A stretch of DNA of 36,301 nucleotides from Actinomycetota bacterium (GTDB lineage: Bacteria; Cyanobacteriota; Cyanobacteriia; Cyanobacteriales; Microcoleaceae), in NCBI GenBank assembly GCA_050262755.1, contig JBLNEP010000122.1, positions 1 through 36,301 of the forward strand, in the 5' to 3' direction. This document shows, piece after piece, positions 3,994 to 10,702 of this stretch (position 1 is its first letter; each line of letters begins with the position of its first letter). The translations under genes and the position numbers were made by a program. The notes below the pieces were generated by a model. It was not told the DNA's origin, did not search any database, and saw only the letters and a list, made by a program, of their open reading frames with translations.

Positions 3994-5832
3994 ATGATGA
4001 ATCAAGCAGAGTTCACGAAAGCATTTGCAGGGCTCACTCAAAGACAGCAAGAAGTGCTGCTAAAAGTGTTGGCAGGTGAAAAGGATGCTGAAATAGCAGC
4101 TTCGCTCTATATCACCAAAGAAACAGTTAGAAAGCACATTGAAAATATCTGCAAAGCTTTTGATTTATCTAACCTGCAAGAGGCTGGTTCCTCCCGTCGT
4201 CCTGACTTAATTGCTTTATTTGCTAAGTACAGACCCGAATTATTTAATGGTAAAGCAACCCCTGCTTCTCACTGTACAAAAATCTTACTCAGTTACCACC
4301 GCAGCACTGAAGCAGATTTAACACTCATTGCTGAGTTAGATGCTGCCTTAAAAGCAATTGGGTGTGATGTTTTTTTAGCAAATAGTAACCTGCGAATAAC
4401 AGCTCATGGCTTGCAACAAATTTACTCAGAATTAAACCGATGTGATTACTTACTGCTGCTACTATCCCCACTTTCTGCTTACAGCGAAATGGTGACAGAA
4501 GAAGTGCGAATCGCGAAAACGCTACAAACTTCTCGCGAGGGTCAAAAACCGATGATACTGCCCATTCGCCTTAATTGCCCTTTAAGTTTACTCAACCACG
4601 ATTTGCGGGGCTATCTGCGGGAAACTCAACAGCAAGAGTGGCGATCGCCCGATGATACTGCGACCCTGGTCCAAACCCTTGTAGCATTGCTGACATCAGG
4701 CCGCCAACCTGAGGCCCTCTCCGAACCCGTCACTCAACCCTCGCCTCTTCCCACTCCCTACGCCTTAACTCCGAATTATCCACCGCCACCGGTCGCAGAA
4801 CCAGAGTTACCGAGGGGACAGGTAGAATTAGCTTCAGCGTTTTACGTAGAACGACCGGGGATTGACGATCGCTGTTACGAAGCGATCGCAAAACCCGGTG
4901 CATTAATCCGCATTAAAGCCCCTAGGCAAATGGGCAAAACTTCCCTAATGGCAAGGGTTTTACACCGCGCTTCTCATCTCGGATATGCCACCGTTCCTTT
5001 AAGTTTTCAGTTAGCTGATAGCCAAGTCTTCGCCGATCTAGAACGGTTCTTGCGTTGGTTTTGTGCCAATGTCGCCTTGCAGCTAGACTTACCGGATCGC
5101 TTAAGTGAATATTGGAATAGTATTTTTGGGACAAAAGTTGCTTGTAAATCTTATTTTGAGCGGTATTTACTGGCAAATTTAGATAGCCCTCTCGCCTTGG
5201 GTTTAGATGAAGTTGATGTCGTGTTTAAGTATCCAGAATTGGCAGCAGATTTTTTTGGGCTATTGCGGGCTTGGCATGAGGAAGCCAAAAATCGAGAGGT
5301 CTGGAAAAAACTCCGGTTAGTCGTGGTTCACTCTACCGAAGTTTACGTACCAATGGATATTAATCAATCACCCTTTAATGTAGGATTACCCATCGAATTA
5401 CCAGAATTTCAAGTAGCTCATGTGTTGGAACTTGCCTTGCGGCATGGGTTAGCTTGGGGACCAAAAGAAGTTGAGCAATTAATGGGGATGGTAGGGGGAC
5501 ATCCCTATTTAGTACGACTTGCCCTGTACCACATTGCCCGTCAGGAAATGACGCTGGAGAAACTCTTAGAAACTGCACCCACTGATGCAGGACTTTATAG
5601 CGACCATTTGCGACGGCATTTGTGGAATTTACAGCAGCATCCAGAGTTAACGATGGGAATGAAAAAAGTGGCAGAGGTGGAGAGTCCGGTGCAATTAGAA
5701 TCTATGCAAGGATTTAAGCTGCACAGTATGGGTTTAGTACAGTTGCAAGGCAATTTGGTGACACCGAGGTGCAATTTGTATCGTCAGTATTTCCAAGTAC
5801 GTTTAGGGTTATCTAGCGGACAATCGCAATAG
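3994..5832 (+). CDS. Three-domain protein: N-terminal LuxR/GerE-type HTH, TIR-like domain, C-terminal PF14516-type (AAA-like, STAND-like) NTPase
   Basis: HTH: LTQRQQEVLLKVLAGEKDAEIAASLYITKETVRKHIENICKAF. TIR-like beta-alpha pattern: KILLSYHRS…DLTLIAELDAALKAIGCDVFL…YLLLLLSPLSAYSEMVTEEV…KPMILPIRL. NTPase: Walker A APRQMGKTSL, Walker B ALGLDEVDVV, and the family-typical C-terminus LHSMGLVQLQGNLVTPRCNLYRQYF. Confidence 0.7.
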   Translation: MMNQAEFTKAFAGLTQRQQEVLLKVLAGEKDAEIAASLYITKETVRKHIENICKAFDLSNLQEAGSSRRPDLIALFAKYRPELFNGKATPASHCTKILLSYHRSTEADLTLIAELDAALKAIGCDVFLANSNLRITAHGLQQIYSELNRCDYLLLLLSPLSAYSEMVTEEVRIAKTLQTSREGQKPMILPIRLNCPLSLLNHDLRGYLRETQQQEWRSPDDTATLVQTLVALLTSGRQPEALSEPVTQPSPLPTPYALTPNYPPPPVAEPELPRGQVELASAFYVERPGIDDRCYEAIAKPGALIRIKAPRQMGKTSLMARVLHRASHLGYATVPLSFQLADSQVFADLERFLRWFCANVALQLDLPDRLSEYWNSIFGTKVACKSYFERYLLANLDSPLALGLDEVDVVFKYPELAADFFGLLRAWHEEAKNREVWKKLRLVVVHSTEVYVPMDINQSPFNVGLPIELPEFQVAHVLELALRHGLAWGPKEVEQLMGMVGGHPYLVRLALYHIARQEMTLEKLLETAPTDAGLYSDHLRRHLWNLQQHPELTMGMKKVAEVESPVQLESMQGFKLHSMGLVQLQGNLVTPRCNLYRQYFQVRLGLSSGQSQ

Positions 5833-5894
5833 ATTAGGGAGGGTGATTTAGAGATGACAGTGAGTCAAGATTGCTCATTAAGCGTTGATATCAG

Positions 5895-7046
5895 ATGAGA
5901 GGATCTGTGAATTCATACGATTATCAAGTGGGTGGCAGCTTGCCAGTCGATGCACCGTCTTATGTTAAAAGACAGGCGGATGATGATTTAATGGCTGGAT
6001 TAAAAGCAGGGGAATTTTGTTATGTCCTCAATGCGCGACAGATGGGCAAGTCAAGTTTACGGGTTAAAACAATTGCCCGGTTACAAGCTGAAGGTATTGT
6101 CTGTGCCACGGTAGATTTGACTGCGATCGGGAGCCAAGATATTACTCCTAATCAATGGTATGCAGGCATTGCTTATACTTTAGCTGAAAGTTTAGATTTA
6201 CTGGATAAAATTAATATTAGCAATTGGTGGGAGAGTCGCGATTCCTCTTGTCCCTTACAGCGGTTCAGCGAGTTTATGGAAACAGTGATACTCTCGGAAA
6301 TCTTGCAAGAAATTGTTATTTTTATTGATGAAATTGATAATTTACTTAGCCTCAAATTTGCTCCTACATTTTTTTGGGAATTCATTCAAAATTGCTATGA
6401 TAAGCGGGCAATTTATTCTGGATACAAGCGTTTAAATTTTGTAGTTTTAGGAGTTGCTAATCCAGCAGATTTAACCGAAAATCAACAGAATCAGACACCC
6501 TTTCAACAGGGTAGAGCAATTGAATTAACTGGTTTTCAATTGCATGAAGTCTGGCCGTTAACTCATGGATTTACGGGGAAACTCAGCAGCCCATTACTTG
6601 TACTAAAAGCCGTGTTAGAGTGGACGGGAGGGCAGCCATTTTTAACTCAAAAGCTATGTAAATTAATTGCTAACTCTTCCCATTTGAATGGAGGGGATAG
6701 CGACACGGAGTGGATTAGCCACTTGGTCAAGCATCAGGTCATTTCCCACTGGGAATTAACCGATGTTCCAGAGCATTTTAAGACAATTCAATCTCGCTTG
6801 CTGAGGAGCGATCGGCGTCGAAAGGAGCGGTTAGAACTTTATCAGGATATTTTAGAAGGAAAGGGCATCTCTGCGAATAGTAGCCCGGAACAGATGGATT
6901 TAAGACTGTCAGGATTAACGATTAAGCATGAAGAAAAGTTATGTGTGTTTAATCGAATTTATGCTGCAATATTTAATGTAGCCTGGTTAAAAAATGAATT
7001 AAGGAAGGGAGATTCAAGAAAAGAACTATTGAATTCTTTGAATTAA
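5895..7046 (+). CDS. PF14516-type (AAA-like) NTPase, stand-alone paralog
   Basis: [23 protein letters not shown]…[17 protein letters not shown] (Walker A), [11 protein letters not shown] (Walker B), C-terminal [25 protein letters not shown]. It sits 62 bp downstream of the preceding gene on the same strand. Confidence 0.7.
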
Positions 7047-9511: not shown

Positions 9512-9523
9512 TGATTTTCGTTC

Positions 9524-10702
9524 TTACTGGGGATGAAAGCCAAAAGGAGGTAACGCCAGCGTTTCTCCATTTTTGAGGCTGATAGTTACATTAAACTCCT
9601 CATCCCAGGTTCCTGCAACACGGGCATAAAGGTAAGGTGCATCCGTCGTCGCCACTTGTTCCACCAAAATACTGCTAGGATCGCTGACTTGCATCTTAGT
9701 CTCATCGGGTAAATTGCTACCTGTAGGCGAGCCTAAGATTAATAATAATTTCCATTCCGGAATACTTTCGGCTGATAATAATGACCAAGTAACAACATAA
9801 AGTCGTAGCGGGATAGAGGAAATTGGTAAGTTTTGATAAGCACCGCGCGCATTAGCAGGAATGGAAGTACCCCGACGCTCTAATTGAACCAGGATGGCAT
9901 CTAGTTCTTCCATGGGAGAGCGTACTATTGCCTCTGGGATATTCATCCAGCGGAATTTCTCAGTCGCAAAAGTCGGAAGCAGAACCCAAGAGAGTTGGGC
10001 TGTGAATTCATCCATTTCATTTTGTAGCCAATGCCATACATTGACGGCAGGTTGTTGGAGGGATGTTAGCGGTTTAATGAACTGAGAAATTATCAAACTT
10101 TGGGGAGTATTGATTAATGGAATTGCAGCAGGGTTTAGGAAGCGGAAGTATAGTAAGAAGTCCTCTAGATTTGTTTCAAACCAACTGAAATAAAGTGGGT
10201 AGTTCAGAGCTAAATCTGCTGGAAGTGGAGCTTTTTTTAGGTTGGACAGCAACCGATCGCCCCGCAGAAAACCTTTAATGAGTGCTGACTCTAGTTCTTC
10301 CATGACTTCAATAGCAACATAAAAATGAGCGATTAATTCCGGTGAATCAATCGCAGCCCTAGGTAGATAAATTTCTTCATCCATCAGGCTCCCAATGGGG
10401 ATAATGCAAAATTTAAAATTGCTGATTTGCAAATAGCAATTCGTTTCAAATATCTTTAAGGATGGTAGTTTGAGGAGTGAGTGGCTTTCCCAAGAGGAGG
10501 TCAGTTCTGGCGCTCGTGCTTTCAACCAAATCTCAAAACTAGAGAGCGCCAAAATATTTAGGTAAATTTGCCACTTTTGTGCTTCATTCGGATGCTGCTG
10601 GCTGAGGGCGATCGCTTGATTAATGTCAGCATATTCAAGGGCAATTGTTTCAGAAGGCAACGCTTCTAAATCAAGTGCAGAATCAGTGAAGTAGGTATTC
10701 AT
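9524..10702 (-). CDS. DUF1822-like protein (cyanobacteria-restricted family of unknown function)
   Basis: 392-aa ORF ending 12 bp upstream of the CHAT-CHASE2 gene, so likely co-transcribed with it. The family assignment is from memory of DUF1822 proteins being encoded beside CHASE2 proteins in cyanobacteria and needs an HMM check. Confidence 0.45.
   Translation of the reverse strand: MNTYFTDSALDLEALPSETIALEYADINQAIALSQQHPNEAQKWQIYLNILALSSFEIWLKARAPELTSSWESHSLLKLPSLKIFETNCYLQISNFKFCIIPIGSLMDEEIYLPRAAIDSPELIAHFYVAIEVMEELESALIKGFLRGDRLLSNLKKAPLPADLALNYPLYFSWFETNLEDFLLYFRFLNPAAIPLINTPQSLIISQFIKPLTSLQQPAVNVWHWLQNEMDEFTAQLSWVLLPTFATEKFRWMNIPEAIVRSPMEELDAILVQLERRGTSIPANARGAYQNLPISSIPLRLYVVTWSLLSAESIPEWKLLLILGSPTGSNLPDETKMQVSDPSSILVEQVATTDAPYLYARVAGTWDEEFNVTISLKNGETLALPPFGFHPQ

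Follow-up and report, generated by a model that had tools for sequence, protein, structure and literature searches.

Four adjacent cyanobacterial genes, g1 to g4, occupy positions 3994–10702 of contig JBLNEP010000122.1, a stretch of 36,301 nucleotides (nt) that was analysed at its full length and is called the window here, and they share features with several described signalling systems. For their protease half, the closest described family is that of the EACC2-caspases (Kaur, Iyer, Burroughs and Aravind, eLife 2021, PMC8195603), in which EACC2, a novel α+β domain, is followed by a caspase domain and a highly variable C-terminus, consisting for example of transmembrane (TM) helices and CHASE2. 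These proteins are found in multicellular cyanobacteria with a DUF1822 gene beside theirs, a gene for a sigma factor of the extracytoplasmic function (ECF) type is present in the majority of their neighbourhoods, and a stimulus-induced autoproteolytic activation feeding a transcriptional step has been proposed for them, as an in silico prediction only (PMC8195603). The sole experimentally studied membrane CHAT protein found in the literature, DdvA of Myxococcus xanthus, is a transmembrane CHAT anti-sigma factor holding the ECF sigma factor DdvS, with a proposed release through proteolysis (PMC11506125). The ATPase half can be compared with the plant TIR-NLRs RPP1 and ROQ1 and with sensor/helper NLR pairs, with MalT-type activators of the STAND class (signal transduction ATPases with numerous domains) and with type IV Thoeris. 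For its own ATPase family, AAA_35 (PF14516), no relevant paper was found, and sll1247 appeared in list entries only; neither AAA_35 nor CHASE2 is mentioned by Kaur et al. 2020 (PMC7159879), and the AAA_35 family is likewise unmentioned in the main text of a 2026 STAND survey and of a 2025 TIR survey.

An initial annotation, made from the sequence alone, had joined the four genes into one candidate module for conflict or regulated cell death. The features that bear on this proposal are the following.

3481–3747, minus strand: small secreted-peptide open reading frame (ORF), 88 residues, divergent from g1
3757–3892, no strand: non-coding block, conserved, in the spacer between the divergent small ORF and g1
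3994–5832, plus strand: g1, 612 residues, LuxR/GerE helix-turn-helix (HTH), TIR_2 and AAA_35
5895–7046, plus strand: g2, 383 residues, AAA_35 alone
7043–9511, minus strand: g3, 822 residues, EACC2-like N-terminus, CHAT, TM segments and CHASE2
9524–10702, minus strand: g4, 392 residues, DUF1822

All four ORFs lie exactly where the initial annotation had placed them, tightly packed, g1 and g2 being 62 nt apart and g4 and g3 only 12 nt, and the TTAA at 7043–7046 indeed forms the overlapping stop codons of the convergent g2 and g3. Its domain calls (GerE, TIR, two AAA_35, CHAT, CHASE2 and DUF1822) were all found above the Pfam gathering scores, which in bits are 23.5 for GerE, 28 for TIR_2, 27 for AAA_35, 26.3 for CHASE2 and 24 for CHAT. 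In g1, GerE scores 39.1 bits (residues 14–64), TIR_2 43.8 (97–200) and AAA_35 511.6 (273–601); g2 scores 86.8 bits for AAA_35, g3 68.5 for CHASE2 (402–760) and a marginal 26.0 for CHAT, and g4 131.5 for DUF1822. A scan of the four proteins against NCBIfam yielded HTH-level matches only, and in a promoter and terminator scan of 3400–11100 the sites were no more numerous than in shuffled controls. Since g1→g2 and g4→g3 converge, the four genes cannot form one operon and make up two operons at most.

It is clear from other genomes that the two pairs do not travel together, and on this point, which the initial annotation had itself named as a ground for refutation, the proposal of a single four-gene module failed. 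A scan with a g3 profile, with one genome per species, gave 420 confirmed loci, the best 80 of which were analysed with 10-kb flanks; for the g1 family, a profile search of metagenome contigs gave 80 loci, which rose to 85 with those obtained by exact protein look-up. As judged from tblastn, homologues of g1 or g2 occur in none of the 80 CHAT-CHASE2 loci with these flanks, 64 of which extend at least 3 kb downstream of g3, and the reciprocal search detected homologues of g3 or g4 in none of the 85 TIR-AAA_35 loci. The sensitivity of tblastn was adequate, because AAA_35 paralogues at 21–28% identity were detected in other loci. Each pair is conserved on its own, g1→g2 in one set and g4→g3 in the other. 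The g1 orthologues of loci L167, L168 and L169 (75–77% identity) and of L082, L083 and L085 (70–72%) are accompanied by a g2-type gene and by no CHAT, CHASE2 or DUF1822 gene, and in Oscillatoriales USR001 the counterparts of the two pairs, cassette A (3481–7046 in the window) and cassette B (7043–10702 in the window), are on separate contigs. L081 alone departs from this pattern: in this nearest relative the four genes stand in identical order (g1 83%, g2 68%, g3 77% and g4 67% identity); the overlap of the g2 and g3 stop codons is not kept there and a 68-nt gap takes its place. As the exception is confined to L081 and orthologues at 70–77% identity are without g3 and g4, the juxtaposition represents a shallow, lineage-specific synteny. 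The region is thus very probably composed not of one system but of two independent signalling cassettes, which a rearrangement, recent and specific to this lineage, has placed back-to-back; by comparative genomics the four-gene adjacency is accidental.

The first protein of cassette A, g1, consists of an HTH (residues 14–64), a TIR domain (97–200 by Pfam, approximately 96–235 in the model), a disordered, proline-rich linker (238–288) and a nucleotide-binding oligomerisation domain (NOD; 273–601), beyond which only 11 residues follow, so that there is no C-terminal sensor domain. The Walker A (RQMGKTS, 311–317) and Walker B (LDEVD, 404–408) motifs are invariant in alignment A2, and the corresponding motifs of g2, RQMGKSS and FIDEID, are kept across its orthologues; with both motifs intact, the NTPases of g1 and g2 look active. 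In the TIR domain the motif S164-E165-M166-x-x-E169-E170 is invariant, with E170 kept in 20 of 20 relatives. In a profile of the TIR segment, which also matches bacterial, plant and SARM1 TIRs, E170 aligns with the glutamate of the SxWCxxE (WCWDE) motif of the CRISPR-associated TIR Cat1, and Met166 occupies the place of the usual tryptophan. The AlphaFold2 (AF2) model of g1 has a mean predicted local distance difference test (pLDDT) score of 76.7, and its top solved Foldseek matches are two TIR-NLRs from plants, RPP1 (E=2.5e-9) and Roq1 (NB-ARC), followed by the archaeal PF01637-type ATPases 2qen and 2fna and then by ORC2. The TIR domain alone superposes on the SPARTA TIR-APAZ at 3.5 Å over 147 columns, and the TRIF TIR was also matched. 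Among the outcomes that would refute its proposal, the initial annotation had named a TIR-like segment without the conserved catalytic glutamate and the TIR fold; both features were found. A search of PDB sequences with g1 returned LuxR HTH domains only, and no solved structure is sequence-related to AAA_35. The TIR domain of g1 thus has the fold and the catalytic-glutamate position of NADase or signal-generating TIRs, and it may cleave NAD+ or produce cyclic ADPR.

The part ahead of the TIR domain is exchangeable. The g1 family is strongly conserved, at 62–83% identity, in many Oscillatoriales, and the TIR-NOD core remains 55–65% identical in relatives, among them paralogous clades, where the N-terminal domain is Trypsin_2 (Nostoc), a nucleotide cyclase (Guanylate_cyc) or absent; output domains are exchanged while the TIR-NOD core stays constant, with 55–83% identity. 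Directly downstream and in the same direction, a g2-type gene is present in 46 of the 75 assessable g1-family loci, with a median gap of about 45 nt, and six further loci have one elsewhere within 10 kb. These g2-type genes are 40–58% identical to g2 versus about 25% to g1. Most of them are longer than g2 of the window: 45 of 50 g2 orthologues are 494–1398 residues long, with C-termini that scan as WD40, TPR, GAF or Sll1247_N/C, and the NOD of these long proteins aligns to the whole of g2 (residues 1–370). Sensor-less versions of 382–390 residues are found in the window, L081, L082 and L167. Neighbour clustering of 86 g1-family loci revealed no further widely common component besides AAA_35 partners. 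The g1–g2 pair looks like an uncharacterised split STAND (NLR-like) pair, with outputs varying on g1, sensors varying on g2 and the two paralogous NODs held constant. In L168 (1047–5816, minus strand) a second AAA_35 pair adjoins the g1 orthologue, namely a protein of 444 residues with HTH_VMAP-M9 and AAA_35 followed by one of 1133 residues with AAA_35 and WD40, and L169 has three consecutive AAA_35 genes; these two loci suggest that splitting output from sensor is something the AAA_35 family does generally. CRISPR-associated genes were also seen beside cassette A, Csx3 in L081 and Cas6 directly 3' of g2 in L167, which are too few cases for an association. Elsewhere in the window, at 29082–34415 on the minus strand, a protein of 1777 residues combines a Ser/Thr kinase, AAA_16 (STAND-like), GAF and a histidine kinase, and a similar gene is located near the g1 orthologue of L083.

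Upstream of g1, on the opposite strand, lies a small ORF of 88 residues, counted from Met28 of a 115-residue ORF. Its N-terminus is signal-peptide-like (MKLSVSTVQSFGNLLTGIAAAATAIASP, with a hydrophobic segment at residues 11–31), and its proline-rich C-terminus ends in PPHGTR, the orthologues ending in PPxxxxxGGSR (alignment A5). Orthologous small ORFs, divergently oriented and of 73–95 residues, accompany all LuxR-type g1 orthologues for which the available upstream sequence is long enough. A hidden Markov model (HMM) built from A5 placed counterparts 220–405 nt upstream of LuxR-type g1 genes in L082, L083/84, L085, L087 (weak), L089, L167, L168 and L169. Of the copies kept out of the model, it recovered those of L089 (E=8e-16) and L087 (E=2.5e-4); it matched nothing else among 11,369 small ORFs, and no ORF of this kind was found upstream of about 70 non-LuxR relatives. 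Between the small ORF and g1, eight orthologous intergenic regions (alignment A6) share 32 invariant columns in the first 136 positions, the rest of the spacer being unalignable. Within this block, at 3757–3892, TGTG/CACA half-sites are repeated, as in cTGTGTAcTCACAAtTCACAg at 3817–3837 and TACACggCTGTGAAagtatCTACACACAG at 3864–3892. The conserved half-sites are just 4–5 nt long, and no inverted repeats of at least 8 nt were found in the g1 upstream region. The block at 3757–3892 is a candidate operator or promoter for the LuxR HTH of g1, and the small-peptide gene is a candidate target of cassette A. Both the small ORF and the TGTG/CACA block are restricted to LuxR-type versions, which is the pattern expected if the g1 HTH acts on that promoter. 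This suggests that the LuxR-type clade is a STAND-type transcription switch with transcriptional output and predicted DNA binding.

Compared with described STAND proteins, g1 has a P-loop NOD with Walker A and B motifs and an NB-ARC-like fold of the NBD-helical-winged-helix kind together with an N-terminal effector part (LuxR HTH and TIR), whereas the C-terminal sensor in the same polypeptide is absent from both g1 and g2 of the window. With the plant TIR-NLRs RPP1 and ROQ1 and the sensor/helper pairs, cassette A shares the order of TIR followed by a STAND/NB-ARC-like NOD and the division of labour between a sensor-repeat protein and an output protein. It differs from these in the lack of leucine-rich repeats, in a NOD that is the cyanobacterial AAA_35, in the extra output domain ahead of TIR, in that the sensor half in the window has lost its sensor and in that the g1–g2 pairing is deduced from gene order alone. 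MalT-type activators similarly combine a LuxR-family HTH with a signal-transduction ATPase, and an operator-like block beside a divergent gene is a further likeness. In MalT-like regulators, however, NTPase, sensor and a C-terminal LuxR HTH follow in this order, whereas g1 has its HTH at the N-terminus, a TIR domain is inserted, there is no in-protein sensor, and a second NOD gene is associated by synteny; the NCBIfam MalT model touches just the HTH of g1 (19.7 bits against a cut-off of 537). No accessible paper was found to describe the split sensor/output arrangement, the exchangeable first domain on TIR-NOD or the association with a secreted peptide, and cassette A is recognised by no defence-system profile.

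Cassette B encodes a receptor-protease and its upstream operon partner. In the AF2 model of g3 (pLDDT 70), the N-terminal α+β domain (approximately residues 1–110) has three β-strands (3–32) followed by helices (35–106), and the caspase-like CHAT domain extends from about 118 to 345, with the dyad His239 (FFAGHS) and Cys283 (FNSCSG) invariant in 19 orthologues. Foldseek matched g3 to separase, the SAVED-CHAT filament 8tl0, caspases 6 and 9 and DdvA (8rot_A, E=3e-4). The marginal Pfam score for CHAT is thus backed by the invariant dyad and by the match to the separase/SAVED-CHAT/caspase fold. Hydropathy places one TM helix (388–406) before CHASE2 (402–760) and three after it (749–811), from which it follows that the EACC2-CHAT part is cytoplasmic and CHASE2 is outside. 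Over its full length the g3 orthologous group is conserved at more than 50% identity among filamentous cyanobacteria, in Oscillatoriales as well as Nostocales. When the EACC2-CHAT part was compared by phmmer with 1.84 billion representatives, the best 150 of 2024 matches were all CHASE2-type. The g4 protein has no hydrophobic or TM segment and is soluble. By tblastn, a DUF1822 homologue lies upstream of g3 on the same strand in 43 of the 80 g3-orthologue loci. The usual context, as seen by ORF clustering, consists of a protein of about 470 residues (31 loci), DUF1822 (37 loci), a DUF928-like secreted protein immediately downstream of g3 (55 of 80 loci) and TPR-CHAT (46 loci), one or more per locus. 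The family of about 470 residues (alignment A3; e.g. L011:7139–8563, plus strand) precedes DUF1822 in 31 of 80 loci and has a C-terminal HTH-like stretch; it has no significant Pfam match, a 21-sequence profile found no PDB match, and it may be a divergent version of the sigma-like partner mentioned in the literature. Directly upstream of the DUF1822 gene in the window is a gene for a bacterial alpha-2-macroglobulin (10954–16698, minus strand, 1914 residues), divergent from a PBP1C-type transglycosylase/transpeptidase (16984–19380, plus strand). The pairing is a classical one, and the 10-kb flanks of g3 in the 80 loci yielded no homologue of it.

The g4→g3 pair fits the EACC2-caspase system of Kaur et al. 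2021 in a minimal form: the His-Cys dyad is intact, the C-terminus consists of TM segments and CHASE2, and a DUF1822 gene is adjacent at 12 nt. It differs in that the window is without an ECF sigma factor and without the DUF928, TPR-CHAT and 470-residue genes of most orthologues. With DdvA it shares a membrane-anchored domain of separase/CHAT type and a proposed (auto)proteolytic relay to transcription. The CHAT domain of DdvA is periplasmic with an incomplete dyad and is combined with a cytoplasmic zinc anti-sigma domain, while that of g3 is cytoplasmic with an intact dyad, CHASE2 is outside and no sigma partner is adjacent. The initial annotation had not recognised the gene combination as any named defence system and had taken the arrangement to be uncharacterised, which does not hold for the DUF1822 and caspase-CHASE2 half, described computationally in 2021 (PMC8195603). 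Its assignment to a general class, that of the NTPase and protease signalling systems typical of multicellular bacteria, was correct.

Several observations weigh against the reading of the region as two self-contained cassettes, a split STAND switch and an EACC2-caspase receptor. L081 keeps the four-gene order despite a differing flank on the DUF1822 side, so that the linkage exists at short range in at least two genomes. In cassette A, 23 of the 75 assessable g1-family loci are without a nearby g2-type gene, and g2 of the window is a bare ATPase without a sensor domain by which cassette A could be triggered; the g1–g2 interaction, the DNA binding of the HTH and the enzymatic activities are predictions. 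In cassette B, the agreement of the g3 N-terminus with the published EACC2 is a match by description, the DUF928, TPR-CHAT and 470-residue families were searched for in the window and none was found, and no sigma-70 family ORF, the family of the ECF sigma factors, is present among its scanned ORFs. Cassette B may therefore be incomplete or dependent on genes elsewhere.

The proposal that the four genes form one conflict or cell-death module would require an ATPase-gated TIR to make a nucleotide signal that activates CHAT, as in type IV Thoeris. Defence systems with TIR and a caspase-like protease do exist (bioRxiv 10.1101/2024.10.24.620036), the genes are contiguous in the window and in L081, and both the TIR glutamate and the CHAT dyad are intact. 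Type IV Thoeris shares with the window a TIR with catalytic glutamate and a caspase-family protease in one neighbourhood; here, however, they belong to convergent, separately conserved operons, the TIR is part of a STAND protein and the protease is a membrane receptor. The operons of Thoeris I–IV, in which a ThsB-type TIR gene accompanies a cognate effector such as SIR2/SLOG, Macro-TM or the caspase-like ThsE, are thus not reproduced, the only caspase-like gene being convergent to the TIR gene and not co-conserved with it. Moreover, in none of 165 other loci do the two pairs co-localise, elsewhere the conserved partners of one pair differ from those of the other, the convergent pairs are separate transcription units, the sensor of g3 is an extracytoplasmic CHASE2 rather than a cytoplasmic nucleotide-binding domain, and both families are 50–80% identical across orders, unlike fast-evolving defence modules. 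PADLOC gave no significant match, as the initial annotation had anticipated (best ThsB, E=0.0084, with no stretch passing), a silence that is not decisive because the PADLOC-DB 2023 models predate type IV Thoeris. Taken together, a joint module is very improbable. Equally improbable is a new lineage-specific coupling in which the CHASE2 receptor-protease g3 was recruited as input for the sensor-less g2. The two genes do adjoin in the window and in L081, but equally short g2 genes (390 residues) occur in L082 and L167 without nearby CHAT-CHASE2, and the stop overlap is lost in L081; as short g2 genes occur without g3, a recruited sensor was rejected.

Each cassette could also have a destructive role of its own. 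Cassette A might primarily be an Avs-like abortive-infection defence, in which the TIR, switched on by NOD oligomerisation after a phage cue, depletes NAD+ and the HTH serves autoregulation or nucleic-acid sensing only. The invariant catalytic-glutamate position, the architecture resembling TIR-NLRs, the swappable N-terminal enzymes (trypsin, cyclase) with variable WD40 or TPR sensors, which are typical of conflict systems (PMC7159879), and some defence or mobile-element neighbours (Csx3, Cas6, an HNH and phage-like gene, IS630) are all consistent with this. However, no Avs (AVAST) or Thoeris model of PADLOC matches, g1 of the window and g2 of its lineage are without a sensor domain, whereas an Avs protein is a single-polypeptide STAND with a sensor at the C-terminus, and the very high TIR-NOD conservation with stable small-peptide/operator synteny points to regulation and not to an arms race; we therefore consider a defence function doubtful, though far from negligible. 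For cassette B, a cell-suicide executioner was considered, whose CHAT would activate a pore-former or degrade the proteome. CHAT proteases act so in gasdermin, Craspase and SAVED-CHAT systems, and a relationship in fold is supported by the Foldseek match to 8tl0, the SAVED-CHAT filament. Against this, no gasdermin, type III-E CRISPR or CBASS genes were found among the Pfam-scanned ORFs of the window, nor gasdermin or type III-E CRISPR genes among the common neighbours of the 80 g3 loci. Furthermore, the sensor is the extracytoplasmic CHASE2, identity among the orthologues exceeds 50% throughout Oscillatoriales and Nostocales, and DdvA, the nearest structural analogue in a membrane, is an anti-sigma factor that controls transcription. 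An executioner rather than a signalling receptor is accordingly improbable.

For the two-cassette reading, a sequence of events can be proposed, each step of which is tentative and would not be given an even chance. In cassette A, a trigger would cause nucleotide-dependent co-oligomerisation of the NODs of g1 and g2. The assembly would cluster the TIR domains for NAD+ cleavage, signal synthesis or scaffolding, and would arrange the HTHs on the TGTG/CACA sites, thereby controlling the divergently transcribed gene of the secreted peptide and perhaps also the operon of the assembly itself. In cassette B, the extracytoplasmic CHASE2 of g3 would sense a signal at the membrane, upon which the cytoplasmic caspase-like protease would cleave itself or a partner and relay the signal, DUF1822 being the obvious candidate partner. 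Gene structure, domains, catalytic residues, folds, the separate conservation of the pairs and their lack of co-conservation are observed; we infer the hetero-oligomerisation, the DNA binding, the TIR chemistry, the substrates of the protease and the triggers. More speculatively still, and with a probability that we rate as low, cassette A may be the bacterial counterpart of sensor/helper NLR pairs. A NOD-repeat sensor would then activate a separate TIR-NOD executor with an exchangeable output (HTH, protease or cyclase), and the LuxR-type clade would switch on the secreted peptide through TGTG/CACA operators.

Other genes of the window deserve mention. At 22255–24951, on the minus strand, a full-length homologue of the major vault protein (898 residues) is encoded, with Vault repeats and the shoulder domain and 979 bits against animal major vault protein structures; cyanobacterial homologues have been reported previously (bioRxiv 10.1101/872010; PMC3762200). 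A fragment of a DDE transposase (35537–35956, plus strand, 139 residues), with only the first 29 profile positions matching, hints at mobile-element activity. The relatives of g1–g4 are all cyanobacterial, those of Kamptonema and the Oscillatoriales being the nearest, whereas one source assigns the identical g3 protein to a MAG of 'Actinomycetota bacterium', and the contig, labelled Actinomycetota, is probably mis-binned.

A TIR domain, two ATPases and a caspase-like protease found together resemble a new immune module, and the separation of the two pairs removes this tempting false positive. Cassette B is a clean minimal example of the computationally predicted EACC2-caspase/DUF1822 receptor system. 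Cassette A represents a highly conserved, uncharacterised cyanobacterial STAND pair, with sensor and output on separate genes, each exchanging its modules. Should the proposed mechanism apply, the pair would offer a simple bacterial model for the cooperation of split NLR-type receptors, in which a TIR-NOD core is coupled to transcription and not to cell death. Were the parallel with sensor/helper NLR pairs also to hold, the secreted peptide might serve as an alarm passed between cells or as a developmental signal within the filaments.

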